A stretch of 64,000 bases of DNA from Dipteris shenzhenensis (lineage: Eukaryota), in NCBI GenBank assembly GCA_047967505.1, contig CM106538.1. One strand, 5' to 3'. The translations under genes were made by a program, and so were the position numbers. The first letter of the stretch is position 1. The number at the start of each line of letters is the position of its first letter. The notes below the pieces were generated by a model that had not been told where the DNA came from, ran no database searches, and worked only from the letters and a program-made list of their open reading frames with translations. Below are positions 11,338 through 46,411 of the stretch, piece by piece.

Positions 11338-11347
<10 letters not shown>

Positions 11348-11375: not shown

Positions 11376-11379
<4 letters not shown>

Positions 11380-17961: not shown

Positions 17962-19099
17962 CTACACTTATAAAACCACAACATAAGCATGAAGAGGAGA
18001 TATTGACAATTATGAGCATAGCATGTTTAATTTGAGCTTCTCTTGAGGCCATATAAAAAGAATGACGTCGCTATATAGTAAGGATTGAAACAAAAAATCC
18101 TATATGGTAAGGCTATATAGTAAGAGGAGATATTGACAATTATAAGCATAGCATGTTTGAGCTTCACAAGAGGCTACACAAAAAAATAAACAGTAAGCGT
18201 CGTTATATAGCGACGCTGTTTCGTCGCTATATAGCGACGCTATGGGTTAAAACCCGAAACGACGAAACGCGCGGCGTTTTGCATAAGCCATTCCTAATCT
18301 CTCAAGTAAGCAACCCAAAATCTCCTCCCACCTATTTTCGACGACCTCCCATCTATTCCAGGCAAACTCCCACTCTATTTCCCACTCCTCACCCTTCTCC
18401 TACCTCTTGTACTCCCTCTCTCTCCTTTTTCCCTCTTTGGTTTCCAGAAAGAAAGTTTTTCAAGAGGTGAGTTTGTTTCAACAATGTAGGTTGTTTGTTT
18501 GTTAGCTTTGGTTTTGTGAGTGTTTCTACTTGTATTGCTAAAGTTGTAAACTAGTTTTCATGCTTGATTTGAAAGGATTGAAACAAAAAACGAAATTTCA
18601 AGAAAGAAAGAAAGAAAGAAAACTCACCTCTTCTTCCTGTATTTCTTTCCTTCTCTTTCTCCTTGTCTCCTCAATCTTCTCTTTCCTTGTCTCCTTTCAA
18701 GAAGTTGCTTTTGTGATCTCCTCTTTCCACTAACATCTTATTTGAAAAAATGGGTTGTTTTCTCTCTTTTGTAGGGCCAGTCCACTACACCGAGTGGGAC
18801 ATACTCTCTCTTTTGTGGGGCCAGTCCACTACACCGAGCGGGACATACTTTTACAGGTAAGTGCTTCCTCTTCTTTCCATTTAATATTTTTGTTATTTGC
18901 ATTGGCCTGCAGCTAGCGCCTTAAGCGCTAGCTGCAGTAATGGGCGTAGGAACCCTCTCTTCCCCTCTCTCTCTTTCCGTCTTCCCCCTTCTCTTTTTCT
19001 CATTTTTCCCCCTTCTCTTTTTTCCCTCTTCTCTTATTCTCTCTTTCCCCCTTCTCTCTTTCCCCCTCTCTCTTTTCCCTTCTCTCTTTCCTTTCCCTC

Positions 19100-21850
19100 T
19101 TATTCTCTTATGCTTATGCTTCTCTCATTCCCCCTTCTCTATTTCCCCCTTCTCTCATTCGCATAAGCTCTTTTTCCGCATGAGCATAAGCTCCTTCTCT
19201 ATTTCCGCATGAGCATAAGCATGAGCTTATGCTTATGCTTAAGCATAAGCATGAGCATAAACTCATGCTTATGCTCATGCATGAGCATGAGCTTATGCGT
19301 AAGTTTCCGCATAAGCTTATGCGGAAATAGAGAATGAGAGAAGCATATGCTTCTCTCATTCTCTATTTCCGCATGAGCATAAGCTCCTTCTCTTTTTCCG
19401 CATGAGCATAAGCATGAGCTTATGCTTATGCTTATGCTTGCTTAAGCATAAGCATGAGCATAAACTCATGCTTATGCTCATGCATGAGCATGAGCTTATG
19501 CTTAAGTTTCCGCATAAGCTCTTTCTCTTTTTCCGCATGAGCATAAGCATGAGCTTATGCTTATGCTTATGCTTAAGCATAAGCATGAGCATAAACTCAT
19601 GCTTATGCTCATGCATGAGCATGAGCTTATGCGTAAGTTTCCGCATAAGCTTATGCGGAAATAGAGAATGAGAGAAGCATATGCTTCTCTCATTCTCTTT
19701 TTCCGCATGAGCATAAGCTCCTTCTCTTTTTCCGCATGAGCATAAGCATGAGCTTATGCTTAAGCATAAGCATGAGCATAAACTCATGCTTATGCTCATG
19801 CATGAGCATGAGCTTATGCGTAAGTTTCCGCATAAGCTTATGCGAAAATAGAGAATGAGAGAAGCTTATGCTTCTCTCATTCTCTTTTTCCGCATGAGCA
19901 TAAGCTCCTTCTCTTTTTCCGCATGAGCATGAGCTTAATATGCTTGTTTCCGCATGAGCTTATGCGGAAATAGAGAAAGGGAGAAGCTTATGCTTCTCTT
20001 ATTCTCTTTTTCCGCATAAGCTCTTTCTCTTTTTCCGCATGAGCATAAGCATGAGCTTATGCTTAAGTTTCCGCATGAGCTTATGCAGAAATAGAGAATG
20101 AGAGAAGCTTATGCTTCTCTCATTCTCTTTTTCCGCATAAGATCTTTCTCTTTTTCCGCATGAGCATAAGCTCCTTCTCTTTTTCCGCATGAGCATAAGC
20201 ATGAGCTTATGCTTATGCTTATGCTTAAGCATAAGCATAAGCATAAGCTCATGCTTATGCTCATGCATGAGCATGAGCTTATGCTTAAGTTTCCGCATGA
20301 GCTTATGCGGAAATAGAGAATGAGAGAAGCTTATGCTTCTCTCAGTCTCTTTTTCCGCATAAGCTCTTTCTCTTTTTCCGCATGAGCATAAGCTCCTTCT
20401 CTTTTTCCGCATGAGCATAAGCATGAGCTTATGCGGAAATAGAGAATGAGAGAAGCTTATGCTTCTCTCATTCTCTTTTTCCGCATAAGCTCTTTCTCTT
20501 TTTCCGCATGAGCATAAGCTCCTTCTCTTTTTCCGCATGAGCATAAGCTCCTTCTCTTTTTCCACATGAGCATAAGCATGAGCTATGCTTATGCTTATGC
20601 TTAAGCATAAGCATGAGCATAAACTCATGCTTATGCTCATGCATGAGCATGAGCTTATGCGTAAGTTTCCGCATGAGCTTATGCGGAAATAGAGAATGAG
20701 AGAAGCTTATGCTTCTCTCATTCTCTTTTTCCGCATAAGCTCTTTCTCTTTTTCCGCATGAGCATAATCTCCTTCTCTTTTTCCGCATGAGCATAAGCTC
20801 CTTCTCTTTTTCCGCATGAGCATAAGCATGTGTTTATGCTTATGCTTATGCTTAAGCATAAGCATGAGCATAAACTCATGCTTATGCTCATGCATGAGCA
20901 TGAGCTTATGCGTAAGTTTCCGCTTGAGCTTATGCGGAAATAGAGAATGAGAGAAGCTTATGCTTCTCTCATTCTCTTTTTCCGCATAAGCTCTTTCTCT
21001 TTTTCCGCATGAGTATAAGCTCCTTCTCTTTTTCCGCATGAGCATAAGCATGAGCTTATGCTTATGGTTATGCTTAAGCATAAGCATAAGCATAAGCTCA
21101 TGCTTATGCTCATGCATGAGCATAAGCATAAGCATAAGCTCTTTCTCTTTCTCTTTTGTGTGAGCATATGCGGAAACATGAGCATAAGCTCATGCTCACC
21201 CATGAGCATAAGCATAAGCTCATGCGGAAAAAGAGAAGGAGCTTATGCGGAAATAGAGAATGAGTTTCCGCATAAGCTTCTCTCCTTCTCTTTTTCTGCA
21301 TAAGCTCCTTCTCTTTTTCTGCTTATGCTCATGCATGAGCATGAGCTTATGCATAAGTTTCCGCATGAGCTTATGCGGAAATAGAGAATGAGAGAAGCTT
21401 ATGCTTCTCTCATTCTCTTTTTTCGCATAAGCTCCTTCTCTTTTTTCGCATAAGCTCCTTCTCTTTTTCCGCATGGGCATAAGCTCATGCGGAAAAAGAG
21501 AAGGAGCTTGTGCGGAAATAGAGAATGAGTTTTCGCATAAGCTTCTCTCCTTCTCTTTTTCCGCATAAGCTTATGCGGAAAAAGAGAAGGAGAGAAGCTT
21601 ATGCGAAAACTCATTCTCTATTTCCGCACAAGCTCCTTCTCTTTTTCCGCATGAGCATAAGCATGCGGAAACTCATTCTCTATTTTAAGCATAATCTCCT
21701 TCTCTATTTCCGATGCCTATGCTTAAGCATAAGCTCATGCTTATGCTCATGCATGTGCATGAGCTTATGCTTAAGTTTCCGCATAAGCTCATGCTTATGC
21801 GGAAATAGAGAATGAGAGAAGCATAAGCTCATTCTCTATTTCTGCATAAG
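19100..21850. repeat. Complex satellite of GCATAA/GCATGA/GCTTAT hexamers and TTCTCTTTTTCCGCAT units, with local inversions
   Basis: Direct reading. It lies between a CAG/GTAAGT donor (18857) and the AG at 22168-22169 preceding the accessory ATG. Confidence 0.92.
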
Positions 21851-22171
21851 CTCATTCTCCTTTTCCCACTCTATTTCCGCTCATTCTCCTTTTCCCACTC
21901 TATTTCCCCCTTCTCTCATTTCCCCCTTCTCTCCTTCTCTATTTTCCCTCATCTCTTTCCCCTTCTCTATTTCCCCCTTCTCTCATTCTCTATTTCCTCA
22001 TTCTCATTCTTTTCTTTCCTTTACATCTTCTTTCCCTCTTCTTTTCCTCTTTCCTTTCCCTCTTCTTTCATTTCCCTCTTCTTTCTTCTTGCCTATGCCT
22101 ATGCCTATGCCTATGAGAATGCTCATGTTTGTTTTTTGTTTTCTGTTTTCGTGTTTGTGTCTATGTTAGAC

Positions 22172-23750
22172 ATGGGATCACGTCGCTCATCCGACGAGTA
22201 CGGACAGCCTCGCAGGAGGAGAGCTCACGATCTATATGCTCCAGAGGACTTTGATTCCTCTCAGGCGACTACCCCGAGGAGTACCCCTGGTCCGACTCCT
22301 CTCGGTCCTAGCACTGTGACTACCCCTGGTCCGACCCCTCTTCCACGTAGCACTGCGACTACCCCTCAGGGGACTCCTTTGCTAGCCGCGCATGGCTTTG
22401 TCGGGACTCCCGACGAGTTTGTAGCGCAGATGAGCGATGAGGAGGCAGCGAGATTCTTCTCTCTACTCTCTCAGAGGACCTCCGTAATTCCTTCCCCTAC
22501 ACCGACGGGTGGACGTATTGCCCAGCCATCCCCTCGCGCCCCTTCGACCGCGGGATCATCACCTGCGCATGCCTCCCGCAAGGGAAGGAAGAGTAGGATG
22601 GGCGGCTCATGTTGTGCTGACTCAGGAGATGTAGACGAGTCAGCACACTCACGCTCCTTTAGGTCTCCACTTGGTCCGGAGACACAGTATCAGTCAGGTC
22701 CCTTTCCCTCTCCTACTCCCACAGCTACTCCTCGATCCGGAAGCGGTCGCGCAGCTTCCACTCCTTCAGACTCTGCTACCGTCAGTCCCCCTTACTCATA
22801 AGGGGATCTCTCCTATCAAATCACATCTGCCGGAGAGATAATAGAAGACAAAAAGGGCAAAGCAGTGATGGCCGCCATGAGGAGGTTGATGAGTTATCAC
22901 TTCAAGAGCGGCATAAATATCGATTGGCGGTATCAAGATGCCCAAAAGAAACAGGCGGTGATCGATGAGTTAAAACAAAGATATCCTAATCCGCCAAATG
23001 TGGAGTTTAATAACAATTATATGCTCGAGCGCATGGGTTTGGTCCTAAAGCATCGCAGATCAACCTTGCGTACTTCCATTACAAAGGGGTTAGCTAAACC
23101 CAGCTGGGCAGACAAAGCTGATTGGAAGTACTTCAAGAAGCAACATAGGGACCATCCCGAAATGTTCGAGGGTCAGAGGAGGGCTGCGAAGAGATGGCTG
23201 GACGTCGTAGGTACTTCGCACGTTGGTGCAGGTGGACGGTATGCGTTCGAGGCAACCGTGGTAAGTCTACTTCTTCCCATTTAATGTATTGTTCTATTTG
23301 TTTTACTTACATATTACATGCACTTTAGCTAGCTCTAACTCTCGTAAATTGGATCCACAGCAAGCTGCGATGGGTCGTCTTCCTACGGATGCAGAGACGC
23401 GGTGTGCATTTCGGATAGGAACAAAGCCGTGGTTCATTGAGCAAGAGGCAATGGGAGCGACAGTCGATTGGGCTGAGGTGGCTGCTCGCACGGTATAAGT
23501 TTACTCCTACTTGTAATCTCACTTTTTAATTTAAGTTCCAATCTAATTTTCGATTTATATGGTTCACTCTTAGGGTCAAAGCTCAAGCGTCCCATCATCA
23601 GAGACGAGTGATCAACAGGGGCAAGGATCGGACGCAGATGCCGAGGACGAGGGAGAAGACGCAGGTGTCAGGGACGAGGGAGAAGACGCAGGTGTCGAGG
23701 ACCAAGGAACAGGCCAACAAGACGATTCAGATTCGGATTCGGATGAGTAG
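22172..23750 (+). pseudogene. CACTA family A accessory gene (TnpA/Ptta-like); exons 22172-23260, 23361-23492, 23574-23750; one in-frame stop
   Basis: Pro/Ser/Thr-rich N-terminus, RYPNPPN, SHVGAGG, acidic tail. Both GT-AG introns are phase 0. Only a TAA at 22799-22801 interrupts the frame. Confidence 0.78.
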
Positions 23751-23950
23751 TGGTAGTAGCTCATTGTATATCCGCTCGTTTGAGCAATTTTGTATCGCCC
23801 TTTCACAGGGTAATTTTATTACAAACACAGTTGTTTATGTATATGCATTTCTTCCTCATCGTTCACAAGAATAATTTTGTATCACCCTGCAAGCAAGGGA
23901 AATTTTGTTATAAAAAACTTTCTTTTGTAATTACAAAAAAAAAAAAAGGA

Positions 23951-23999
23951 TTAGTGGGGCTAAACAGGGCCAAAAGGAAGCCCTGTTTAGCCCCACTAA
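23951..23999. other. Perfect 20 bp-stem hairpin flanked by A- and T-tracts
   Basis: TTAGTGGGGCTAAACAGGGC, 9 nt loop, GCCCTGTTTAGCCCCACTAA. Confidence 0.9.
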
Positions 24000-24021
24000 C
24001 CCTTTTTTTTTACTTCTATTA

Positions 24022-24160
24022 ATCGTCGCTATATAGCGACGTTTACCGTGTCGCTATATAGCGACGATTAACAGTGTCGCTATATAGCGACGTTTTCATC
24101 GTCGCTATATAGCGACGATTAACAGCGTCGCTATATAGCGACGGTTTATAGCGACGCTCC
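24022..24160. repeat. CACTA subterminal array of the palindrome GTCGCTATATAGCGAC
   Basis: Five full copies and a partial one; the same motif occurs internally at about 18066 and 18198-18240. Confidence 0.92.
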
Positions 24161-24399
24161 TTTTCCGACGATTTTAACGACTTTTATAGCAACCTTTGCG
24201 CCCGTGAAAAAAAAAAATTTTAATGTAAAAAGCGTCGGTATTTCCGTCGGAAAATGGCCTATGCCTTGTAGTGATAAGCAAATTTTTTCTATAAGTGATA
24301 TGTTCATTTATGAACATTTCCATGTTTACATTTCAAGACATTACTACCATGAAACTTAGAACAAACAACAATATTTAGCTTCATTCATAGTTCCACATC

Positions 24400-25010
24400 C
24401 AAAAATTGATGTGGCTATTTGGCACATGTAACTTAGAACATATATAAGCTTGCTAGTCCTCAAGAGAGAGAAATAATCCAATTGTCTTGCCCCCTCCTGA
24501 ACATGATTGGATGATTATGAGCGTGGTATTCTACCTAGCATGGGATGGCATGCAACCTTTTCCCACATCCCTCTCTCTCCCAAGTAAGCATCTATTAGCA
24601 ACATGATCATTTGCAACATTATGATATGTGGACAAATGTCGATATGTCACACACACTAGTGAAATAGATATAAGCATTACTTGTAGAAGCACATACAAGC
24701 ACTCTTTTGTTCTATACTCTAAGCTAGCATACTTTGTAAACCTTGAGATATATTTTCCACATAAGTGTGGCTTCATGGGGTACAAATTGTAATATATTAA
24801 CAAGCTCATATCTAGATTTTCTCACGTGATAACACGTGAAAAAGAAGGATCATAAACCTATGTATACTACGATCTATCCACACAAGTGCATCATAATTTT
24901 GTGAGTTGCTACAAGCCAGCAATCGCGAGCTCCACAACCAGCTAGACTTTGATCGAGATGAAAACGGCTGACATAGCAAGCCCACAACCATTTCAAGTCA
25001 AGTATTCTCT
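24400..25010 (-). mobile_element. Diverged third copy of the region upstream of the hAT transposase
   Basis: Aligns with about 7065-7750 and 34055-34720 (260 bp repeat and the CATAATTTTG(T/C)GAGTTGCTA block). Confidence 0.7.
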
Positions 25011-25114
25011 CTGCACTCTAGGATTTTTTTAGTATGTTTTTTAAAAGAAAAGAAAGTGTTTTTTGAATTAAAAATGCATGTGGACGTTCAAAATGCAAAA
25101 AAACACATTTTTTA

Positions 25115-25420
25115 TAATCGGTCAACATGCACTGGTTGACCTGCTACATACCGATCGGTGAATCCCAACACCAATTGGTATTTTTTCAAAAATACCGAAC
25201 GGTGTTGGGATTCACCGATCGGTGAAAAAATACCGGTTGGTGAATCACTACACCAGTCGGTATATAATAAACTGATCGGTGAAACAAAACACCGGTCAGT
25301 ATATTCAAGAAAATACCGGTCGGTGTAGTGAAATACCGATCGTCGATGTGCATCGACCGAACACATGGCATGCATGCATTGGCCATGAAAATCGACTAGT
25401 TTGGACATACCAGCCAGTAT
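25115..25420. repeat. Array of ACCGATCGGT/ACCGGTCGGT motifs
   Basis: About 12 degenerate copies at roughly 20 bp spacing. Confidence 0.8.
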
Positions 25421-25579
25421 GTTGAGTCGAGTTCTTTAAAAGGGCACCTTCACGTCATTTTTTCCCACCTCTCACCAAAATTCACCATAGCTTTTCGTTG
25501 TTTTGTGCATCCTTGCCTTTCCGCTTCTCCTTTAGGCTTTTGGTGAGCTTCTAGCCTTACTATTATTCTCAGTTAGGGT

Positions 25580-26075
25580 TGAGTGATGGCTCGCTTTGGC
25601 CAGCTGGATTCACCTCGCCTAAGCTGAGAGAAAAGAGAGAGAAATATGCCATATGTTTGTGCTTGCTTGCTTTTTTGTGTGTGCTTGCATGATGTGTTTC
25701 ACTTGGGGCCAAATGATGACTCGCTTTAGCCAGTTGGATTCATCTTGCCTCAAGTGATATTCTAGTAGTGTCATGATTAAGGTCGAGTGATAGCTGGCTT
25801 CGGCCGGTTGGATTCACCTCATCCCAATTGAGAGAGAGGAATATGTGTGATGCTTATCACTTGGGGCTAGATGATGAATTGCTTCAGTTGGTTGGATTCA
25901 TCTCACCTTGAGTGATGTTCTATTAGGTAGTATCATGATCAAGGGCCGCTCCAGCCGGTTGGATTCATCTCACTTTGGTCTAGTATCATATATTTATATA
26001 TATTGTACGTAGTTGTCAATAGAGCCACTTATTTTCCGGATGATAGCTCACTTTGGCCGGCTGGATTCATCTCGA
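25580..26075. repeat. Six dispersed copies of a ~35 bp motif (GCTCGCTTTGGCCAGCTGGATTCACCTC-like)
   Basis: Copies near 25585, 25715, 25788, 25872, 25945 and 26040. Confidence 0.8.
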
Positions 26076-26522
26076 CGATGACCTTCCCAATGTGCTCAAG
26101 ATGTGTGATCACACAATGTTGATCTAGATCATCTTGGTTCATTACATCGTGATTGCGGTTATATGTTTTCCTATTTCATTTTTTATAGCCTATCCTTCTT
26201 CGATAGCTTGATAGGGTTTCTTGGAGTAATTTGTATGAGGCACGCTATTGCTTGTAGGGTTCTCATTATAATTATCTATTAGAAATCCATGTTAGCATGT
26301 CCGTAGATCTCAATTTTATTTCTTGATTTTTTTGCATTTGTTTTTGTAATGACTATTGAGTGTTAATGTAATGCATTATGATTGGACCTAGATGTCTCAA
26401 TTACTTAATTGCTATGCGTTGGTTTTTGTATGTACACGTCATGACTCATCGTGGTAGTAGAACCTCACGAGTGCTTACGTAATTGTTGTTGTGTGAATTA
26501 GATCCATACCTCTACCTTCCTC

Positions 26523-27996
26523 ATGGCAGCCACCCCTTCAAAGAGAGAGAGACACACTTGGAGAATCGAGTTGCAACACCTTGTTTGTAGGGTGTGCGTT
26601 CGACATATTATATCATTGAGTGAGGAGAAAATAAGAGAGATTTTGCATACCAAGTCTAAGCTGGATAAAATGCATCAGTGCATACTTGCTCAATTTGATT
26701 GTAGCTAGATGAGGTGTGGAGAGGTGGAGCGGACAGAGGAGAACGAGGCTAAACTAAATTTCCTACCTAGAGTGCTGGATCATATAGTGTACAATGGGAA
26801 ATGGTAAAGCAATATTCAGAGCCCTTGATAGATGCAGCAAGGTCAAAGTTGGATAGGTGGCTTGTAGAAAGAATCCCATGCTGCCATTCATAGGAAAAAT
26901 CGAAAGGAAAAAGGTGCGGTCGGTAGACTATCAAATGTTGCCATGCGCGCAATATTATACCCAGTTGCTAGTGGCTCATAAAAAAGAATAGACACAATAA
27001 GTCAAGATGGCAAGGCACAAATAGACTTGTGCACAAAGTTTGCAGACGTGCTCTACAATGGTACACTTCCCACTATTAACATCGACAATTAATCTTGAGG
27101 CATTAGGTAGGGGAGTGGAAGGAAAAGCATACCAAGTTAATATAAAGGGTGTGCCAGGTTTCAAGCCAACCCTATCTTATGCTCACAAGAAGTTGAGGCA
27201 CGATACTGCACATGCACATAGATCATTGAAGATAGAGCTAGCCATGACTGTAATGCATAGGGCCGTGTGTCACGCAATTGGTTACATACACATTAGTGAT
27301 CTTTTGTTAATCAGTCCATACTTCAATGGAGGTAGTATTCACGACATGCTCATGAGCCTACCTTCCATGTATCATGATTATCCAAACTGGGCAAGGTGAG
27401 GCAACCCTCGTGAGCAACCCGGCAATGCATGGCATGATACACAAATGCGAGAACACCTATTCTATAAGAATGCTCTTGCCATTTGCACAGCTATTGCTAG
27501 TGCGATGAAAGAAGTGCATAAGAGGGGGTTCAGACACACTGATTTGAATGCCAGAAACTATGTGATGGATTTCACACTAGATGGGAAATCTGCATGGATG
27601 AGCATTATTGATTGGGGCAGGTGTCTCCACAGAACTAAGAGTAGGTTCAGGCACATGCTCCAAAGTCAAGATTTCCTTACACCAGAGCTTTACACAAGAA
27701 ACGATGCTATACCTCAATCAAATGGCGCATGGTCAGCCATGTCAGATTACTATGTTGTCGGTCGATTACTTGTTGAAATAGCCAACTTCCTTGTGGGGTG
27801 CAGGTCCGCACTATCAAGTGATGAAATATACTCAGGGCATGTAATCAAGCTGTTATGGGATTGTAAACTCCACTTGTGCTAGAATGAGCCTCGGGAATGG
27901 ATGAAAATGGAATCACTGCTAACTAAACTTCATGCACACGGTGTTAATGAACATGACGCAATGCGTCCAATGGGCGATATGAAAACGTATCTATAA
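26523..27996 (+). pseudogene. Divergent intronless protein kinase with N-terminal extension, disrupted
   Basis: LGRGVEGKAY (Gly loop), YAHKK (beta3 Lys), PYFNGGSI, HKRGFRHTDLNARN (catalytic loop), IIDWG, FLTPE, SDYYVVG. ORFs 27040-27399 and 27445-27882 share a frame, with stops at 27397 and 27880; the frame closes at 27996. Confidence 0.85.
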
Positions 27997-28252
27997 AATT
28001 GTAATTTTGACATATCATCATATTTCCAGTTGCAAGTCCCGTAGTTTTTAAATATTCCTAAATTAAAATTTGCACTGTTTTGAAATGGATGTTGGATAAC
28101 ATCATTGGTTTTTAGGGTTTATGTTTTGAAATTTTGAGAAAACAATCTTCTACAATAGGATAAGAAGCAAATGTGTTTAAATGTATGTATGTATCATGTC
28201 CTGAACTCATATCTTTGCTATTATGTTTAGGGTTTAGAATTTCAACAAAACA

Positions 28253-29463
28253 ATGGCATCATCATCAAGAGAACCCTCTTGACCATCCACATAGGCCAAG
28301 TACCAAGCCCGAACGCACACGTGGTAGTCAAGCAATGAAGTTCATGATGGATGTGGTTGATGCTACCACGCATCTATCATTAAAAGAGCAAACAAAGGAA
28401 ATTTCCGCTCCCAATATTTTCCACAACCCTAATGGCATGAAGTACTCATCTATAGAGGTCCTCATCTTGGATGACAATTTATTGGCTATATGGGATTGTA
28501 CCAAAAATGTCCCAAGCCACGAGCAATGGTCCCTTACACAGTGTTATAATGAAAGGATGAAAGAGAATGCACAATGCATCTGGGAGATGAGCTTTGCTAG
28601 GAAATTTGACTCTGAAATTCCCAAATACTTTGCAAAGATGCTATATGCAAAGTTTGTGCTTGGTCATGAAGTGGACTTTGCCTCAGTCACTCGAGTACAC
28701 AAGGAGCCATGTACGTAAAGCACCAGACCCATGGTAGTTGAAACTCCAAAAAGCATCGACAGTCGAGTGTCAGGTGAATATGATATTTAAATATGTCGAT
28801 TATTTACTTTTGGTTTTTTTTGAAGAATTCCAACCCAACATCAATTGATAAGTTTTTATGTGACTTTATTGAACGTGTAGCCTCTATCACAAGTGAAGAA
28901 CTCTATATGAATATCAAAGAGGGAGCTAGACAGGGAGTGAAGGATGTCACATTTACGACTGCCACTGTACGAGATGAAACTATGGATCATCGATGAGTGC
29001 TACAAGAACTTGAGCAAGTGAGGAGCGACAATGAAATATTGCATGCACAATTATCCCAAACTGGCCAGTGGCTTGATATCGACAATGCGTATGTGGAGAT
29101 GTGCATAATAGCAAGCAATTATTCTCAACAAGCACATGATGCACAATCCACCTTACAACATTTTGAAGAAGGGGCGTAGTCTCGATAATCAGTCATGATT
29201 TTGTTGGCCTCGCCATGATGCCTACAACATTACAATACATCATGGATGGGCCATGTTGCCCAATCTACCAAGATCATTTTGACAGGGCCACAAGATACTA
29301 TGCCCTCCCTTGTGATCATCCCTTTCACCTTGTCTATCTTGTGAACACTTTAAAGGTGAGAAGTGCATGTGCGACATGCAATGCTACTGTGGCATGTGAG
29401 TTGTATGACATGCTCGGCATCGGCGCAACATACTATCCCGATCCGAGGCTACGTACAATTTAA
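28253..29463 (+). pseudogene. Unknown N-terminal domain, coiled coil and C-terminal RING-H2 finger, disrupted
   Basis: CPIYQDHF...LPCDHPFHLVYL...ACATC fits C3H2C3 spacing with two Cys replaced by Tyr (TAC, TAT). LQELEQVRSDNEILHAQL is coiled-coil-like. Upstream FAKMLYAKFVLGHEVDFA domain is unassigned. Confidence 0.72.
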
Positions 29464-30539
29464 ATAATGAGAGGAAGAATTTTGTATACAAACATATTTA
29501 TAATATAAAATTAATTTTTGGACATGTGTTATCTATTTGCAATAACTATTTTGAAGGTTTGTTTCAAAGGTGTATTGAATTAATATTCTTGTTACAATGG
29601 TGTATTTTCAATTCTGAAGAAATTTGTTTATGATGATAATGGAAATGGATCTTATTCTCATAAATGTAATGCTTTGTTTTAGTAGTCGACCATCTCCATG
29701 GTGATCATCCTTGCTATACTCATGCTTATCACTAGCATGGTGCTCGGGGTGACGATTATTTGTGGCTGTTTCATGCTCGAGGTGACGATTTTTTGTGTCT
29801 ATTTCATGGTGCATATTCTACTGGGGGCTTAGTGCACCCCACGTGCCACCTACTGGCGCATGAGTCAGCTAGAGAATAGTCTTGATAGCATATTATATGC
29901 GTGTAGCCATCTGTTGGCTTAGTTTTTGCTGTGGTAATTTTGTATTGATATTGCCATATACTCGATATTGTATGAATATTTCCATGTTACGGCCTATTTT
30001 TTTTATGGGCTCATTTCGTATGGATAGTGCTAGCCCATTTTTTGTAACAATAATATTTTCAAATGGTGGACACGCAATCTCCAAGTTAGATTATTACTGT
30101 GAAAAGGCTGAAGTGCTCCATGTTGAATTGTTAAAAATGCAATGTTTGTTGAAAATTGCTGAATTCATTAACATGGATGCATTGATTGTTGAAAATTATT
30201 GAAGTAATTAATGTGGATGCATTATTATTGTCATACTTTGAAGTGGAATTGTAAATAATGCAATGTCTACACCACTTAAATAGGGTCCACTCGAGGAACT
30301 TTAATAAGAGATCGTAGTTTGCAAATGATAATTTTAACATCCTTCAGTCAACTTGCAAAACTAGGAATAAGTGCAATTGCTGAAGTAATTATTATGAGCA
30401 TGATTTGAAGTGAAATAAATATTCAATATTAGTTTCACCATATTCACCCTTTGCAAAATCAATTTCACCATATGTCAATTCAAAATTAAAAAGGTGATTT
30501 ACAATGTCTCAAAACAATAATGTTGGACAACAAGTCGCA

Positions 30540-30993
30540 AAATGGTAGCAACAAGAGTTTGCAGGGCCCTAATCTCTTGGTCCCTTGCATTTTCAAATTC
30601 TTTCATGCACATCACCCAAGAAATGCAACCTCCTTCTTAAGCAAGAGCCAATGTATGCCTGATGACAGACATTACATCTCCACCATCCACCGTCTAGCAT
30701 CATAACATTATTATCCACATGTGCGACAACTTCACCTGCATCTTTAGACTGCATTGTTATGTCAACATCAATGCTAGTAGGTGGCTATAAAATGGCGGGC
30801 TGCCACTCTTTGTGCACCATCGTCTTTGCAACGTGGCATTGTCCTATTGACATCTTCCACGAAGTGCTATAACATCCTCATCGGTGAGCCTCGAAATTCT
30901 TGATGGCAAATATCACATCTCCAACGATTTCCTGCTATCATTGGTAACATAGTTGCATGCTGCTGTTGAACCTCCATTTCTCTCTGGAGCCAT
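30540..30993 (-). pseudogene. Gene with two tandem BED zinc fingers, disrupted
   Basis: Manual translation gives MAPER...WRCDICHQEFRGSPMRML*HF...MPRC and WRCNVCHQAYIGSCLRRRLHFLGDVHERI*KCKG, both similar to the transposase BED finger. Confidence 0.75.
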
Positions 30994-33900
30994 CGCATAC
31001 TGTCAAATTAAGGTGTTCAGTTAATTCAATTGCTTTCATAATCATCAAAAACAATTTATTTCTTTGAAATGCATTTTTAACCTAACTTCCAACATGTGAG
31101 TACTCCATGCAAGCTTGCTAGACCTCGAGAGAGAGAAATCATCCAACTGTCTTGCCCCCTCCCAACGTGGTAATCTACCTATTAAAATAGGCATGGGATA
31201 GCAAATCACCTTTTCCCACATCCTTCTCTCTCCTTAGTAAGCATCTATCTGCACTATGATCATCCGCAACATCATGTTCTATTGACAGATGTCGGTATTT
31301 TACACACACTAGTGCAGTAGCTAGCATCACTTACATAATTACATTAAGGTTCCAAGAGGGTTCAAGCAATCGGATAATCTGTTCCAAGTTTGAACATTGA
31401 AGTAAAACAATTGTAATACCATCTAAATACTGTAGCAGTACTTCCAATTGGTATGATATCCATCAACAAAATTGATGACATCAATGTACGTCAATTTTAT
31501 TTTAACAGAACGTAAGCACGATTGTAATACCATCTAAATGTTGTAGCATAATTTCCAATTGATATGACTTCAATTAACAAAATTGATGTGGATGTCAAAC
31601 AAAAAAATGCTTTAACATAATTTCCAATGGGTGTGACATCAATTAACAAAATTGGTATCATGTCAATCAATTAGCTAGCATAATATTTAATAAGTCAGAA
31701 TGTAAGCATGATCAATAGTGTATATAGTATTTCACGCCTGGGAATGATTGCTCATGAGTGATCACAAAGTTTCCTCATCCTCCTCATCGCTAGAGCTTAC
31801 TTCGACTGCTGCGACTTGCAATTGTCCAACAATGGGAGGATCATGCAACAGACCTGGGAGATCACAATGTGCCAACTTGGCTAAATCTCCATCATTGCTC
31901 CCTCCCTTAACATCATCCAAAACTCTACCATTTGCATAAACATATACCAATTTCTCTGCTCTTCTGTCTTCAAGTGATTTCTTGTGACTGAATGAACAAA
32001 CTTGTAATTACTCGAATTTCGTTCACTCTTCGAGTTGCTACAAGGCTGGCATAGCACTTTCAATGCCAACGTTTACAAATGAGGTGTCAAAGCTCCACTT
32101 ACTTCCCACCATCTCCATGCAGGCATCTCCTTTGCAAGGTATCCTATTCTTGTATATGCAAACAACCCTTCCCTATTTCGAAAAGTGGATACTTCCTTGA
32201 TAGCAGTAGCATATTCAGATCTATCCTCAAAAAATCATCCCAAGAGATTATGCCAAGGCTACATTATGTGTTCCAATGTTTTCGGATGATACTCCCGCCA
32301 TTGGGGATCTAGAATATGGCCAGCATAGTGGAGGAGGTCATTGTGAGCATGATTCTATCACTTTTAAAACATTTTTTGCAAAGTGACACGATGAACGGCG
32401 CTGTAGCCAATGTTGTCACTTGTGGATCTTCTATTTTCCTTTAAGAGGTCCCGCTCAGCAATCCACCATGCCATGTAAGCATTGCCCAAACATGGATCTT
32501 TCACATCTAATTTCCAAATGACAAACCATACCAGCCTCATTGCATCAGCCGCATCACCTATTCTCTTCCAAAAGCTAGCAGTGTGAGCCATTTGCTTTAT
32601 CTCTATGAATTCAATGCGAGCATTTTGTGCGGTTGACTCAACTATCCACTTGCTAGCTTCTACACTGAATAATGTCTCCGTTACAGCTCCATGTAGCTTG
32701 AGCAAATGGTCCAACATTATATAATTTGTTCTGAAATGTGTTTTGCCAAGTTTCAAAAATTGTAGTGGATGTTCTACAAGTTTGTGGTTCTTGAATATGC
32801 CCAACAATCTCTCATGGTTGAGGAATTATAATACCAAATTTTCCTTCATCTACACTAGCTTTGAACCACACAATCTCTACTGATTTATACTTATCCTCAA
32901 GCACAAGGTCAAGGCAATGGCAAGAGCATGATGATGCCCAAATGGTAGGATATTTTTTATTTATATTTTTTCCAGCTTTCCTACAGTTCTTCACATTATC
33001 CATGATTATCTAAACAATGTTATGCTCCCCAACATCTAAGATTGCAACCTCCAGTTGTTCAGCAATGTATTTATCTATCTTGGCATTACCACTTGTGTCA
33101 ATGGATTGACGAAAAGCCTCCGCCTTAAATGTCACTACCATGATATTGATAAGAGGCCTCTTGGTGACATTTTTCCATCCATTAATAACAATGGTACATC
33201 CTGTTCTCTCAATACCATTGTATACTACTTGCTCCATCTCTAGTTTCATCCTCTCATAGTATGCATCCAAGTAGTTGTTGCAGACAGCATTGTAACTAGG
33301 CAACGTAAAGCTTGGACCCGAAGCTTGGACCTGTCGCCTTTCCTACATATGCCATAGCTCTCTTCCAATGCGGGTTTTGAACCATGCTTAGTGGGTAACC
33401 AGTGTGACAAATGGCCTCAAAAACATCTTGTTGCACTTTCTCTATATGACTCTTCCAAAGATCTTTGATGCAGACACGAACGCGATTGCGAATGAGAAAT
33501 GTCACTACATTGTCCATTATCCATATACTTCATGTTGTCATCTGTGTGAATGAGGCCACACCACTATTTTGAGGTGGCACATCTACAAATTGACTAGCTG
33601 GAGGTGTGAGTAAATCATCAGGCATACGTTCTTGAGGCTAGGATTGGTGATGTGCGACTATATCATCTACCTAGTTATCTATACTTTTAGGCATTTGGCT
33701 GCCTAGAGTGGCTAAAACTCTCTCAAGTCCTGGCCCCTTGCATTTTCCAATCTATTTGTTGCTATCACCCAAGAAATGCTTTTGCATTCTTGTGCCGGAG
33801 CCTGATTACTCTTTATGACAAAAGTTTCATTTCCACTTCCTGTTAGGCAACATCGTAACGTAATCGTGAGCCTTTGTTGGATTTCTTACTTGTTTTTTAA

Positions 33901-35306
33901 GAGCCATGCTTCCAATAAAGGCTGTAAGAGAAACATACAAAAACTTATATAAGTTCTATGTATATTCACATTAGTAATCATGTTTTGGATACTCCCATAT
34001 CATTTAGGATCTAGGACACATCACATTATCTTAAATCATTTGTAGTTCTACATCCAAAATCAATGTGGCTATTTGCAACACTGACTTAGAATACTCCATG
34101 CAAGCTTGCTAGACCTCGAGAGAGAGAAATCATCCAACTGTCTTGTCCCCTAACGAAATAATTGGATGATTGTGAATGTGGTAATCTACCTCTTGAAATA
34201 GGCATGGGATGGCAAATTGCCTTTTCCCACGTTCTTCTCTCTCTCGGGTAAGCATCTATTTGCACCATGATCATCCGCAACATCATGCTCTATTGATGGA
34301 TGTCAGTAGTTTATACACATTGGTGCAGTAGCTAGCATCACTTACACAAGTACTTATAAATAATTTTACTACTACTTTCTAAGCTATGAAAAATTGTTTT
34401 ACTACTACTTTCTAAGCTAGGAGAAATTGTTAACCTAATATCCTCAACTCTCAATTTTTCTTTTTAGTGTATATATGTACTATGATGTTTGAGTTCTAAT
34501 AAAAGCTACAAATTAAAAAGTGTGTAATATATTCATATCTAATTTGTTTCACCTAATAATCTATAAAACACAAGGATAGTGAACCTATGTATACCACTAT
34601 CTTTCCACATATACGCAACATAATTTTGTGAGTTGCTATGAGCCAGCAATTGCGAGCTCCACAACTAGGTAGACTTCGAGCGAGATGCAAAACCCGCAAC
34701 CGGCTCAAAGTCAAATATTTCCTCATCAATTTTATATACTAGTTTGTAGAGTTTCAGTAATATAAAGTATGAATTTTACCCACATACGAGATGTTCCAGG
34801 TCAGCCTAAGTGAACATCCATCCGGCACATGGTATAATATTATTCATCAACGAATGAGTTGTTACAGGTTGGCTTAAGTGAACCTCTCACTGGCCCATTG
34901 AATTTTTCTTTAGGTATAGTTACAAGCTATAGTTGCATGCTTATAAATAAATACATATGCTAAAAGTAAGAGAATCATACACACAAACATAAACTATTCC
35001 AAAAGTAAATCATTTCATGCACTAATGTCTGCTCTACCATTTTCCTAAATTTTGCTAGTATCCATCTACTATATTTGATGCATCTAGAATGAAATCTTAA
35101 GTTATGAAACTAAACTAAAATTCCAAGCCATGCAACTACCTAGTCCTAAGTGACAAGTCATTCCAAAGATTTTACAATCTATACAAGTAATGTAACTTAT
35201 ATACTTCATCATAAAATCAAAATCATCCATTTTTTCAAAGCTAAGTACAATGTCACATGCAACTAACTTACTCTTCACCTAATAGTATGTATAATGTAAC
35301 TACTAA
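30751..35306 (-). mobile_element. hAT-family module, copy 2
   Basis: Collinear with 3766-8510; cut on the right by the truncated LTR of Copia element 2. Confidence 0.8.
31740..33907 (-). pseudogene. hAT transposase (BED, DUF659, dimerisation domain), copy 2, disrupted
   Basis: GCTIVINGWKNVTKRPLINIM; MDNVKNCRKAG...CSCHCLDLVLED; KVLCQPCSNSKSERN; VYVYANGR. Confidence 0.9.
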
Positions 35307-35308
35307 TA

Positions 35309-35580
35309 GATCTGACTACCACCCTCATAGCTATAAAGAGACAATCTCCCTAGTCCATTGTATCAAATCAATTCAGATCAGATCAGATCTTCGAGCTAGT
35401 ATCTCTTCACCTAGTATCTGTCTAGATCACCATCTAAGCTCCACTGTGGGAGCACATGGGTGGACGGAGCCATCATCTGTACTACATCAATATTGAAAGA
35501 AAATTTTGTTCATCTCCAATTTGCTATGTACTCTCTATTCTTTGTTCAATTTTTGTTCCGCTGCATCGTGTAATTTAACA
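35309..35580 (+). repeat. 5'-truncated 5' LTR of Copia 2
   Basis: Aligns with 46786-47039; both end GTGTAATTTAACA. Confidence 0.88.
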
Positions 35581-35654
35581 TAATATCAAAGCCCAGGCAG
35601 CTCTAAGGATCAAAGAGCAGAGGAGAGGCAAGGGCTTCAATAGTATACAGAGTG

Positions 35655-38595
35655 ATGGCAATAGGAAGTGGCTCGAGTTGAGTAGCTGCAGCTGCACCAA
35701 CAATCTAGGCATTGAGGATTCACCCACCAACCTTCACTGAAGGCAAGCTAGATGGTACAAGCTACACTCTGTGGAAGTTTAAAATTACTGCTATTCTAGA
35801 TTCATATGAGCTTCTAGAGATAGTACTAGGGACTGACCCAGAACAATAAGGAACCCCCAACCCAGCAAATTCGGGGACTACGATACCTCCTAATGCCGAC
35901 TTTCTACGAGCTTGGAAATGCAAGAATGCAGATGCTCTGTGTGCCTTGGTTACAAGTACTACTGATAGTGTTTTGACCTTGATTTAGCATACATCTATGG
36001 CAACTGTGGCTTGGAACATATTGAAGAGTTAGTATGAGATGCAGAATCATACAAGGATCCAGAACCTGGAGAATCAGCTCATAGCTGAGAAGTTTAATGA
36101 AGGACAGATAGTGGAGGCATTCATAACCCGAATCAAAAATCTGCGTGACCAGATGGCTAGTGCTAGGATACAAAAGACTAGTGAAGAGCTAGCTCGGCAG
36201 TGTCTCTGAATATGTCTGCCAAGGTTTGATGGACTAGTAACAACACTTAACACTCATGTGAGACCCCAACCATTGTCATTTGAGGAGTTCTATACTTTAC
36301 TTATGGAGGAGGAATTGAGGCTTAAAGCTCAAGATGGAGACAACAATGGGGATGCTGCGTTCTCTGCCACTGTGAAAGACAAAGGTGGTTCCTCCACCAA
36401 AGGTGAGTCCTCTACTAGTGGTGACAAAAAGAAGGGCAGCAAGAAGAAGTTTTAGGGAGAATGCTTCTAGTGCAAGAAGAAGGGCCATGTGATTGCAGAT
36501 TGCCGGTACAATAAAGCAGATATATGAAAAGAATGGTACCCTGAAGAAGATAGATAAGGGGAAAGAGATAGCTAACACAGCGGAAGCAAAGTTGGATCTA
36601 TTTCTGGCCATTGAGGAAGAGTGTTTCTCATTTCAAGAAGTGTCAACCATGGATTCATGTGTGTTGGATAGTGGTGCCTCTCGTCACATGACCTGCAAGA
36701 AGGGTCTATATTGTTCCATGCAGCCTCTACAAGAACCCATCACCATGGCGGTTGGAAATAATGCAAAATGCTCTGTTGAGGGTATAGGTATGGCTTCATT
36801 TGTTTCTGTAAATGGAGATGTTAAGAAACTATGTAGTGTGTTGTATGTTCCACAAATCAAGAGAAATTTGCTATTAGTTTCTTCCATAACTGACCTTGAC
36901 CATGAGGTTAGGTTCAACAAGACGAGCAAAAATTATGGATAGAGCATGCTGGCAATTTTGTTGGCACAAGAGTAAGGAGGAACAACCTGTATGAGCTAAG
37001 TACTCTTACAGCCACCACTAGAGTAGGCACAAGCAACCTTTGGCATGAAATATTTGGCCACATTGGATTTGTAGTGCTGAAAGAGATGTAGAAGCAAGGT
37101 ATGGTTGCTCACTTACCTACAGTAGCAGAAATCAAAGAACCGTGTGAAGCTTGCATGATGGGCAAGCAACAAAGGAAGGCATTCCCACAAGAAAGCAAGA
37201 ATAGAGCAAACGCTCCCCTAGAGTTTATGCATGTTGACTTGTGCGATAAGATGCCTACACGGGCCTTGGGGGGATCTTCCTATTTTTTATTGATTGTCGA
37301 TGACTATAGTAGGAAGATGTGGGTGTACTTTCTTCGCGAAAAGGCTCAAGCTTTTGGTAAACTGAAAGAATGCCTACAGCTTGTTGAAAATGAAACATGG
37401 AGAAAAGTGAAGAAAATTAGATCAGATGGTGGTGGTGAGTTTGTTTCTATAGAGTTTGGAGATTTTTGCAAGAGCAAAGGGATCAAGCAACAAATGATGA
37501 CACCACATATGCCTCAGCAAAATTCAGTTGTTGAACGCCGAATGTGGACCACCGTGGAGATGGGGAGGTGTATGTTGAAAAGTGCTGGATTGCCAAACCA
37601 CTTTTGGGCTGAGGCTATCAATACTATGGTTTACATCCTTAATCGTAGCTATACAAAGGCACTGAAGGTAAAACACCACATGAGGCTTACAGCGGTAAGA
37701 AGTCATTTGTCTCCCATTTCAGAATGTTTGGGTGTGAATGCTATGCGCATGTACCAGACAAAGGGAGAAACAAGCTACAACCAAAAAGCACCAAATGTAT
37801 CTTCTTAGGCTATTGTGATGACAAGAAAGCCTATAAGTTGTATGACTGAGAGGAAAAGAAGATCATAGCGAGCTGCAATGTGGTGTTCAGGGAGCAACCA
37901 CATGCAGTGGAGGCAGAGAAGAGCTCTTCCACTTTATCATCAAACGAAGAGGTAATTCACTATGGACCTATCCTAGGAGCTATAAAGGAGGAGGAAATAT
38001 CAGATGATGAAGGTATAAGTCACCAACCTGTTGTTACACCACCAGAAAATCCATTACCATGATGGGTAAGGCAGCTCTATGACCATGATAACTAGATGCC
38101 TATGTCTGTTGAGCAGGATCCAGATGGACCAAGGCAGTCTCAAAGAATCGAGGAGCAAAGGAGGGCTTCTGCTCACATAGTCAATATGGCCTTGATGGCT
38201 GAGATTATTGCAAATGTAAAGGAGCCTGTGAGTTTGGAGAAAGCACTTGCAGACCGAGATTGGAAAAATGCTATGCAAGTAGAATATGACAGCATCACGA
38301 AGAATGAAACTTGGGAGTGGTAGATTGACCACCCAACACAAAGGTTATTGGCACCAAGTGGGTTTGGAAGGTAAAGTACAAGGCTAATGGGACTTTGGAA
38401 AAGTACAAAGCAAGATTGGTTGCACAAGGATTTTCGTATGTTGAAGGGTTTGATTTTCAAAAATCTTTCACTCCAATTGCTAGAATGACCACTATTCGCA
38501 CAGTACTATCGATGGCTGCTCATAAAAAGTGGCCAGTTTATCAAATGGATGCTAAATTTGTATTCTTGAATGGTGACCTCAAGGAGGAGGTGTAC
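35655..38595 (+). pseudogene. Copia gag-pol 5' part (gag, protease, integrase, start of RT)
   Basis: KLDGTSYTLWKFKI; VLDSGASRHMT; HVDLC...IVDDYSR...RSDGGGEF...PQQNSVVERR; KYKARLVAQGFS; QMDAKFVFLNGDLKEEVY. Confidence 0.93.
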
Positions 38596-39339
38596 TATTG
38601 AGCGGAAGAGAAAGAGGAGAGAGACGGACACAAGAGTTGTGTTGAGAGGAAGAGAAAGAAGAGAGAGACTGGAACACAAGAGTTGCTCCTAATAAAGTGA
38701 TTCTATTCATAGATCATAAGCATATATATAGTTGAGGACTAGGCTAAGGTAGGGAAAGCTATATATAGCTCTAACACCCCCACTCAAACCAAGCCACTCA
38801 AACCAGGCCCTCTAGCTACAGATGAAAAAAACCCTTGGGGAGTACAAGGGAAAAACCCAAGCGACTATATATATCTATGTGAAAATATATATACAAAGGA
38901 TGGCCATATGCCAATTTGAATGATATAGTGTAATGCTGGATGATACAATCGAAATTGCATGTGGATGCATGTGGATAGTACAAGGGCATAAGAGAAGCAC
39001 TTGTCCATAGTATAGTGCAAAGTATAGGGGTTTGGTGCATGATACAGTGCAAAGTATGTGTGAAAAATAGAAAAATTTTCTTGGAAATCTCAACTTGTTT
39101 GACATAGTGACGATGCAAAATCAGGGCTTGAGATCTTCAACTTCGATGTTTGAGCTCTTCATCTAAATAGTAGAGCTTGTTTCTCCAAGTTCAATTTGGT
39201 CAAACCTCCTCAAACCTTTATAATCATGCCTTCATGTTTTGCACAATTCATCCACATAAAATGACCGATTTCATGCAATGTATATGAACACAACAAATAT
39301 ACAAGTGTCCGTTTCTATTGTACCAAGAATGAATGTATG

Positions 39340-40520
39340 AGGAAATTGCTTTGGTCACTCTAAAGATGAGTATGGAGGGGAGATTTGAGATGTCCACAAA
39401 GCCAGGGCTAAAATGTCTCTTGGGTAGTGTAAGAAAACCGTAGCAACACAATAGGAAGGCCCATAAGTTCCTGCAAATCAAGAACCAATAATCCAAAAAC
39501 ACAACGAGTATTCGAGCATCCTGAAGTATCGGATTTGATATGTCCATAAAGCCAGGGCTGATATGTCGCTTGCGTAGTGTAAGAAAGCCATAGCAACACA
39601 ATATAAAAGCCCATAATGATCTTGCAAATCAAAAACCAATAATCTAGAAATGCAATGAGCATCCGGACATCCGAAAGTACCGAACAATTGAGCATCCCAG
39701 AAGTACCGAACAATTGGGTAGCCAGAAGTACCAAACAACTAAAAATATGAACAATTGGGGATCCCAGAAGTACCGAATAACTGCGCAACCAAAAGTACCG
39801 AACAACCAAAAATACAACGAGAATAAGCCATGCACATATGACAAGAGGCAAGCTTGTGTGGATTAGACATAGCTTACATAATCATAATGAGAATGAAATA
39901 ACAACCTCTTCGCATCCGAAAGTATCGAACAACTGGGAAGATGAGCATCCAAGATTACAAAGAACATGCATAAGTAACCAAAAAAATGGGCATCTGAGCG
40001 GTGATCACATCCAAGCAAGTACTCAACAGTAATGTATATGTGCCACATCCAAACGAGTACTTAATAAATAATCCATATGTGCCACGTCCAAACGAGTACT
40101 CAAGAAGTAATCCATATGTGTTCATCTGAAAGACGTTGAACCTTGCCACATGCAAATGAGTATGCAATATGACCATGTCCAAATGAGTACTCAATAAGTA
40201 ATCCATATGTGTCCATCGTGAAAGCCAGATAAATATGTGTTGCATCCAAATGAGGACTTAGTAATAATGTACCACATCTAGACGAGTAAATATGTGTCAC
40301 ATCCAAACATGGAGTCAGTAATAATCCATGTACCATGTCCAAACAAGTAATCAAGTAGTTAGCCATATGCCACATCCAAATGAGTACTCAAGCAATTAGC
40401 CATATGTGTTCATAAATATTGTCACCTGAAAGACATTAGACCTTGCCATGTTCAAACAAGTATGCCATAAGTAATCCATAGATGCCACGGCCAAACGAGT
40501 ACTCAATGAGTCAGCCATAG
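39340..40520. repeat. Three adjacent tandem-repeat blocks in the 3' region of the nested element
   Basis: About 130 bp duplication (39385-39660); about 30 bp GAAGTACCGAACAA units (39660-39815); about 40 bp CCACATCCAAACGAGTACTCAA units (40005-40520). Confidence 0.85.
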
Positions 40521-41010
40521 GTTTTCATCGTCGTGAAAGACATATAAGTATACCTCACCACATAAAGGGAGAAATAAAAGTATGCCTTGCTTGAACCAAT
40601 AAGTAAATACATACCATAAGTCATCAATAAGTTAATCAACAAAGAAGGAACAAATTTTTGGTCTAGCAAGACCTTGCATGCACTATAGATGAGTATGAAA
40701 AACAAAGTAGATGTACTCATCCTGTAGGTATCGAATGTGCATTGAGTTCGTTGGATTATATCTAGGCATCTATGCAAACCTGCATGTACTTGGAGAAACA
40801 ACTGAGTACTGTGATGAAAGAGAACATATGAGCTCACCTTGGAAATAAATGAGTGCCTTGAAAACGACAAGAAAACATGTGAGAAGCACCTTTGCATATG
40901 TGACGTAACGTATCCAAGGAGTAATGATATCAAAGCTAAATAGAAAAGAAACATTGAAAGAAAACATGTTCGAATGTTAACAACATAAAACATTCGGCAA
41001 GTCCTTTTCT

Positions 41011-46343: not shown

Positions 46344-46411
46344 GGTCATCTTTAGAGACTCGACATTGGGCCGAGAAGGTAGTTCACCTATGTGTGGACA
46401 TTGAGGGGGGG

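Follow-up and report, generated by a model that had tools for sequence, protein, structure and literature searches.

A nested patchwork of decayed CACTA-, hAT- and Copia-type pieces around a dead kinase gene and a dead RING-like gene

Composition of the block

We analysed a 64-kb stretch of DNA from Dipteris shenzhenensis (contig CM106538.1; hereafter the window), concentrating on the block at 24400-35306. A first reading of the letters (the original prediction) had described this block as a candidate hAT-associated mobile unit, more than 10 kb long, carrying kinase, RING-H2 and double-BED genes. The structural conclusions given here are all drawn from the window and from protein databases. 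In character the window is eukaryotic, plant-like and rich in transposons, and the block is a nested patchwork of decayed CACTA-, hAT- and Copia-type pieces around a dead kinase gene and a dead RING-like gene. Its features, together with those outside the block on which its interpretation depends, are the following (ORF, open reading frame; LTR, long terminal repeat; K2P, Kimura two-parameter distance; a strand is given where one applies):

1966-8966: copy 1, made up of a satellite remnant, a copy of gene A, a hAT block (3766-8509) and an ACCG array (8744-8921), and lacking the 7,054 bp that hold the kinase and RING-like genes
15179-17961, minus strand: CACTA-type transposase gene (TnpD-like) with Transposase_21 and DUF4218, left of the block
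22166-23750, plus strand: gene A, putative partner of the CACTA transposase, with a main ORF (22166-23284, one stop) and an acidic ORF (23574-23750) containing a 27-bp tandem repeat
24381-25019: S', an old direct duplicate of the hAT upstream region, collinear with S at 34036-34750 and with 7046-7751 in copy 1
25145-25405: subterminal-type array of ACCGATCGGT, the probable end of a transposon unit, aligning in the same orientation with 8744-8921
26725-28062, plus strand: kinase pseudogene, its domain (27079-27789) free of introns, with stops at 27397-27399 and 27880-27882; one copy in the window
28164-29463, plus strand: degenerate RING-H2-like gene read across three frames, with an ORF at 28164-28718 and a RING motif at 29254-29382
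30560-30784 (finger 3) and 30798-30941 (finger 2), minus strand: two BED-like finger modules, matched by tblastn to the transposase finger
31098-31346: R265, a 250-bp repeat found also at 34089-34356 (upstream of the transposase finger) and 24446-24661 (inside S'), at 78-82% identity by self-BLAST
31700-33952, minus strand: BED-DUF659-hAT transposase pseudogene, with its finger at 33644-33952, DUF659 at 32851-33300 and the dimerisation domain at 31965-32132
34036-35307: S and further hAT upstream sequence, homology to copy 1 stopping at 35307
35308-47039, plus strand: Copia LTR retrotransposon (LTRs 35309-35580 and 46786-47039; K2P 0.14), which sets the right edge of the block

Most of the features listed in the original prediction are real: the array, the kinase, the BED fingers, the hAT transposase pseudogene and a hAT copy at 3766-8509. 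Their assembly into one hAT element is a different matter, and on balance we favour a three-part mosaic over a single hAT element. The first part (24400-25405) would be the end of a CACTA-associated unit that includes the transposase gene at 15179-17961 and its partner, gene A (22166-23750); the ACCGATCGGT array would be the subterminal repeat array of this unit, and S' beside it an old duplicate of the same kind of end. The second part, from 25406 to ~30560, occurs once in the window and comprises the dead kinase gene and the dead RING-like gene. The third (30560-35307) contains the two extra BED-finger modules and the BED-DUF659-hAT transposase pseudogene, a gene that in copy 1 is placed between gene A and an ACCG end of this kind and that in copy 2 is cut on its right side by the Copia element. 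It had been stated that no terminal inverted repeat (TIR) or target-site duplication (TSD) separates the parts; no such pair was found here either, but boundaries defined by homology at ~25405, 30751 and 35307 do split them. The parts were also said to be similarly decayed, which holds only roughly: the BED finger of copy 2 has four stops in 103 codons, and the kinase domain alignment (27079-27789) has one stop.

The boundary at ~25405 is defined by sequences that recur in copy 1. S' is 73-74% identical to both S copies (K2P 0.32-0.34), which differ from each other by a K2P of 0.14, and it is therefore an outgroup to both. The hAT upstream sequence reported on both sides of the kinase is thus present, 24381-25019 matching 34036-34750 at 74%. 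An ACCG array (25145-25342) directly follows S', and a second one (8744-8921) is found ~235 bp beyond the hAT block of copy 1. With at most one mismatch, ACCGATCGGT matches the window nine times, five at 25150-25324 and four at 8784-8892, against 0.33 expected (none of 100 shuffles reached nine matches), so the array originally described is borne out. The motif CACCGRYCGGT has 20 of its 23 window matches in the two arrays (8761-8916 and 25149-25325; 0.48 expected). The arrays align in direct orientation with a score of 58; the inverse scored 23 and the best shuffle 26. Similarity ends within ~60 bp past both of them, in the block just short of the kinase, and the flanks differ. A shared end followed by unlike flanking sequence is characteristic of a transposon terminus, and a boundary therefore parts 24400-25405 from the kinase. 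Together, S' and its array (24381-25405) form an old duplicate (K ~0.33), in direct orientation, of the sequence at the end of copy 1. The kinase and RING-like genes thus sit between two direct copies of one transposon end, S' with its array on the left and S (with its array in copy 1) on the right. The arrays are of the subterminal, short-motif type by which CACTA elements are recognised, and we infer that they belong to CACTA rather than to hAT.

The CACTA-type transposase gene matches Transposase_21 (E 2.7e-52, 16106-17320), the TnpD-type transposase of the CACTA superfamily, as well as DUF4218 (E 1.4e-24) and, weakly, Transpos_assoc (E 0.019). Gene A, which matches no Pfam family, has a copy at 2271-3765 in copy 1 and paralogs, detected by tblastn, at 57898-58413 (E 9e-16) and 63134-63589 (E 3e-13). 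Each paralog lies right of a minus-strand Transposase_21 gene, and gene A likewise lies right of 15179-17961. A tandem duplication is found at 53880-63593 (period ~4.9 kb, 95% identity, K2P 0.05), its unit being a Transposase_21 gene on the minus strand and a gene A-like gene on the plus strand. The two distal pairs are thus duplicates of each other (95%), and the co-occurrences of gene A and Transposase_21 that can be counted as independent are two. From these co-occurrences, gene A would be the partner gene of a CACTA family. The arrangement resembles that of two-gene CACTA elements of the En/Spm type, with a Transposase_21/DUF4218 gene beside a second, family-specific gene, short-motif arrays near the end and a terminal-type motif beginning CACTA; here, however, the genes are divergent, the second gene has no Pfam match, and the left end and a 3-bp TSD were not found. 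Linkage of the kinase and RING genes to a different transposase had been named at the outset as evidence against a hAT element, and it is present in part, a CACTA Transposase_21 gene and its partner flanking the block.

In the third part, DUF659 (E 1.1e-31) and Dimer_Tnp_hAT (E 1.9e-6) are matched in different frames, which bears out the BED-hAT transposase predicted on the minus strand, as a pseudogene. The combination of a BED finger (zf-BED, in copy 1) with a hAT dimerisation domain places it in the hAT superfamily, and its counterpart in copy 1 (4738-6976) has longer ORFs than the copy in the block. Downstream of the gene are the two extra BED-like modules (tblastn with the transposase finger: E 6.5e-11 for finger 3 and 2e-9 for finger 2), which together with the finger of the transposase make three. 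The zf-BED profile passes its Pfam cutoff only in the intact finger of copy 1 (E 5.7e-6; 26.7 bits versus 20.6) and gives no match in the other four of the five finger segments, which are paralogs of that finger at 41-73% identity by tblastn; the BED fingers of the original prediction are therefore upheld by paralogy, with the profile cutoff passed in one of them. R265 has further copies at 4110-4374 and 7099-7363. Because four of the five copies lie ~140-160 bp upstream of a BED-finger module, their placement suggests a duplicated unit of promoter/5' untranslated region plus finger; no finger was found by tblastn downstream of the fifth (24446-24661, in S'). The block shares with Ac-type autonomous hAT elements a transposase composed of a BED finger, a DUF659 region and a C-terminal hAT dimerisation domain. 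It differs from them in having no detected hAT TIRs or 8-bp TSD, in the two extra BED-finger modules downstream of the transposase gene, and in that the hAT gene lies inside a CACTA-associated unit in copy 1 and is dead in copy 2.

In the nested-insertion mosaics of large plant genomes, as in the block, Copia, CACTA and hAT pieces interrupt and truncate each other and divergence varies from piece to piece. The block does not differ from them in kind, and they are the ordinary background against which it has to be judged. As the evidence stands, the main value of the analysis is a corrected annotation, a nested CACTA/hAT/Copia mosaic with two dead passenger genes.

Two copies and a 7,054-bp difference

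Self-BLAST matched 3766-8509 to 30751-35307 (88% in a global alignment) and 2271-3670 to 22166-23597; in copy 1, therefore, gene A directly adjoins the hAT block. The match to copy 1 breaks off at 35307, since the Copia element starts at 35308. The hAT module had been predicted to resume at 3766 in a second copy of the same unit. It does resume there, and both the hAT block and gene A were copied, but the kinase, the ORF at 28164-28718 and the RING are missing from that copy. In copy 2, 7,054 extra bases (23697-30750) lie between gene A and the hAT block, and the kinase and RING are within them.

Copy 1 matches 23176-23696 and 30751-35307 at one level of divergence (K ~0.13). In windowed comparisons, identity was 85-87.5% for 3244-3656 against 23176-23583 (transversions 0.030-0.035) and 85-92% along the hAT block (transversions 0.022-0.058); further left in gene A it was 75-80% (transversions 0.075-0.11). 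Since the 3' part of gene A and the hAT block have the same divergence, the two sequences flanking the 7-kb segment were duplicated at the same time. On the left, copy 1 breaks in the last unit of the 27-bp tandem repeat, within an ORF that in copy 2 continues to a natural stop at 23750. The right breakpoint falls inside BED finger 3: copy 1 retains finger 2 (3805-3996), but its finger 3 breaks off after ~11 codons, the complete module being present in copy 2 alone.

Because each breakpoint interrupts a feature that copy 2 has in full, the simplest reading is that at least 12 kb were probably duplicated once, and that 7,054 bp were then deleted from copy 1. The duplication (K ~0.13) would have extended from the 3' part of gene A into the hAT upstream region, the subsequent loss in copy 1 would have had its breakpoints in the acidic repeat of gene A and inside BED finger 3, and the kinase and RING-like genes would have been passive passengers of the duplication. 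The kinase-RING segment was probably inside the copied stretch and carried along once, as far as the breakpoints indicate. Of the mobile unit first proposed, the joint copying of this whole stretch remains; hAT as its vehicle is not supported.

Alternatively, the kinase and RING-like genes could be host pseudogenes trapped between unrelated transposon fragments and never copied with these; 23697-30750 would then have been inserted into copy 2, in part or in full, only once the duplication had taken place. Neither gene has a second copy in the window, where tblastn with the kinase, the ORF at 28164-28718 and the RING ORF gave only the self-match for each; no transposable-element domain was found in 25406-30560, and a transposon end lies at ~25405, just before the kinase. 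An insert of this kind would, however, start in phase in a tandem repeat and ORF and stop inside a BED-finger module. No target duplication or inverted repeat was seen at the junctions of the 7-kb segment, which were read by eye, as was the left end near 23697. A scan around the two genes (left 25300-26800 versus right 29400-30800) gave no TIR/TSD pair for TSDs of 3, 5, 8 and 9 bp, and for 2-bp TSDs three matches versus a shuffle mean of 1.9. We regard this explanation as unlikely.

Several points weigh against the reading preferred here, a mosaic in which one duplication was followed by a deletion. The presence of the kinase-RING segment at the time of duplication is argued by the breakpoints alone. 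Divergence in the left part of gene A is roughly double that of the remainder, so a single duplication needs later recombination or conversion, or a faster rate there. There are two copies only, both within one window. The sequence after the Copia element (47040 on) is unlike the continuation of copy 1 (8510 on), and the true right end of copy 2 is therefore unseen. As for the CACTA-associated unit, neither its terminal inverted repeats nor its left end were found in the window, and a scan pairing CACTA termini, together with a consensus end motif, gave no convincing left partner and no 3-bp TSD. The terminal-type motif CACTACACCGACCGG, exact on the minus strand at 25316-25330, recurs with one to three mismatches inside the arrays and at 18783 and 18827, and the array could be hAT subterminal rather than CACTA.

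The kinase and RING-like genes

The kinase was matched by Pfam Pkinase (E 3.3e-8) and PK_Tyr_Ser-Thr (E 1.9e-9), and a hidden Markov model of its own family aligns 27079-27789 in a single frame (E 9.5e-33), in agreement with the intronless kinase predicted on the plus strand. The motifs GRGVEG, the lysine of AHKKL, HTDLNARN, DWG and TPE align with those of the family, and the elements of a eukaryotic protein kinase are present: the glycine loop, the catalytic Lys, the catalytic Asp and Asn, and the metal-binding Asp motif. The gene is a pseudogene because of the in-frame stops at 27397-27399 and 27880-27882; the translations contain three further stops just upstream.

An exhaustive HMMER search with the kinase against 1.84 billion representatives returned 19 proteins at E ≤1e-3, one of them at E ≤1e-10, and eight of the 19 align with the window kinase into a coherent family with its own motifs. 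A profile search names 11 family members, four from Adiantum nelumboides, two from Diphasiastrum complanatum and five from unnamed ENA records; the named relatives thus come only from a fern (A. nelumboides) and a lycophyte (D. complanatum) and are always annotated as "hypothetical protein". The window kinase (27079-27789) and proteins P0002-P0010 and P0020-P0029 form a small, distinctive family. One cluster at 90% identity, from one fern, contains 19 member sequences, and many of the predictions are truncated. No Pfam domain besides kinase families was found in the longer members (339-476 aa), a search for longer, fused forms gave one weak generic kinase among 4839 candidates, and a word-indexed protein search with the kinase gave none among 345 candidates. 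Of 389 pattern matches in metagenome contigs, 12 were scored and two (L001 and L002) are family members; these contigs are at most 1.4 kb long, and therefore no flanks were obtained from either. The multi-copy, decayed state of the family is compatible with carriage by a transposon, and also with polyploidy in that fern.

The RING-like gene is less well defined. Its zf-RING_2 match (E 0.0057, 17.3 bits) is under the Pfam cutoff of 27.3, and the translation has Tyr at two expected Cys ligand positions, so that the eight Cys/His zinc ligands in C3H2C3 spacing of a RING-H2 finger are not all present, and the RING-H2 gene originally described could not be confirmed. Its N-terminal ORF (28164-28718) matches no Pfam family and had no usable match in an atlas look-up. 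For the suggestion that the cargo acts on host silencing, no evidence and no support were found.

Kinases and RING proteins are common in giant viruses, and the kinase-RING segment could in principle be the relic of an integrated one. An atlas look-up of a family member returned generic kinase clusters only, one row among the many being a Nucleocytoviricota kinase cluster. However, none of 72 pattern matches among 2.9 million viral contigs encodes a relative of the kinase, the named relatives are all from a fern or a lycophyte, and no viral hallmark domain was found, which makes such an origin extremely improbable.

The vehicle and the surrounding repeats

The element first proposed, of more than 10 kb with kinase, RING and double-BED cargo, would have been moved by the hAT transposase acting on its own termini. 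hAT-upstream sequence does lie on either side of the kinase-RING segment, and the breakpoints of copy 1 suggest that this segment was once within the copied stretch. However, the flanking S' and S are direct, not inverted, repeats, the second copy is without cargo, and the transposase is riddled with stops. One pair of candidate ends, at 23520/34522, consists of 12-bp inverted repeats without mismatch, flanked by 8-bp repeats with one mismatch, but it is AT-rich, copy 1 shares both of its flanks, and all three copies, the remnant of copy 2a included, are collinear across the right-hand site; it therefore marks no independent insertion. A scan for hAT ends, defined as 12-bp inverted repeats (at most two mismatches) with 8-bp flanking repeats (at most one mismatch), gave no match between 25300-31500 on the left and 34000-35320 on the right and none in copy 1, with an average of 0.3 over 20 shuffles. 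The termini had likewise not been found before, and no hAT TIR/8-bp TSD pair frames the block. A multi-gene hAT cargo element is thus unsupported: the left third appears to be where a CACTA-associated unit ends, a Copia insertion forms the right edge, neither cargo gene is present in the sole other copy, and both are dead. We consider this element very unlikely. Instead of the hAT transposase acting on its own ends, the vehicle would have been either the outer ends of transposons, in the way suggested for the capture of genes by Pack-CACTA elements, or local segmental duplication.

For Pack-CACTA elements, Catoni et al. 2019 (PMC6379663) propose that capture begins with closely spaced direct-repeat insertions followed by loss of one end. 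Here, two neighbouring elements of the same family in direct repeat would have enclosed host DNA with the kinase and RING genes, the outer ends would have moved the whole after the inner end was lost or bypassed, and copy 1 would be a transposed, internally deleted copy. In keeping with this mechanism, direct duplicate ends bracket the kinase-RING segment, copy 1 finishes in a terminus of the same kind next to other flanking sequence, and in the kinase family one fern has the cluster of 19 members at 90% identity, many predictions being truncated. On the other hand, copy 1 has no left end, being cut in the satellite against a Copia gag fragment, and no TSD is visible. Two copies in the same orientation 20 kb apart fit a local segmental duplication equally well, and diploidization after polyploidy in that fern, with which PMC9387920 is concerned, could give multi-member clusters without transposition. 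A composite transposon of this type is possible, if rather improbable.

The likeness to Pack-CACTA and Pack-TYPE capture (PMC6379663, PMC8903248) lies in host-like genes enclosed by two copies, in direct orientation, of a single DNA-transposon end. Further points in common are the neighbouring CACTA transposase gene with its partner gene and the presence of a second, internally deleted copy. Whereas Pack elements are short and non-autonomous and hold gene fragments between proper TIRs, the stretch described here measures at least 12 kb, contains a kinase gene with a whole domain and a RING-like gene, has no TIR or TSD that could be found, and is at most a candidate for a mobile unit. A literature search for fern transposons of the CACTA or hAT type carrying kinases gave nothing relevant among the matches listed (titles and abstracts).

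It is doubtful that seed-free vascular plants harbour, more generally, a composite DNA transposon with CACTA-type ends, a nested hAT transposase gene and lineage-specific kinase and RING E3-like passengers amplified with the element. If they did, this would explain the multi-copy, often truncated kinase predictions in the fern and the lycophyte. Should the kinase-RING segment travel with the transposon ends, a DNA transposon would have captured entire genes instead of fragments, in a plant lineage that has been little studied, and the case would offer a way into an uncharacterised kinase family.

Three further repeat features lie to the left of the kinase:

18955-22128: satellite array, found by self-BLAST, with a 250-bp remnant at 1966-2215 before copy 1
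23932-24158: hairpin and palindrome array, consisting of a 39-nt hairpin (23932-24018) and an array of GTCGCTATATAGCGAC (24024-24158)
25573-26074: irregular repeat array upstream of the kinase, with all six window matches of the motif CCRGYTGGATTCAYCT (0.23 expected)

The satellite spans 3.2 kb in units of ~125-250 bp with internal inverted segments, and is probably located within a 5' intron of gene A, as indicated by donor-like and acceptor-like sites read by eye. The 16-nt palindrome GTCGCTATATAGCGAC has five of its seven window matches at 24024-24158 and two at 18199-18238 (0.01 expected); gene A is flanked by these arrays, which may serve the CACTA family as binding sites. Bases 1-41 of the window had been matched to the irregular repeat at 25841-25873; 31 nt (11-41) do match 25843-25873 at 87%, but not the full 41, and what recurs there is one copy of a 14-nt motif with nothing kinase-like after it.

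Retroelement pieces are found at the edges of both copies. A Copia gag fragment at 1214-1971, comprising Retrotran_gag_2 and a zinc knuckle, breaks off against the satellite remnant of copy 1, and no Copia domain continuing it was found on the plus strand of 8901-15200. The Copia element at the right edge of the block contains gag, protease, integrase and reverse transcriptase, with matches to Pol_BBD, rve and RVT_2. In sequence nested within it, a 252-bp direct repeat, 100% identical, occurs at 41010-41261 and 42913-43164, 1.9 kb apart, and may represent either a small LTR-type element of very recent origin or a duplication introduced in assembly.

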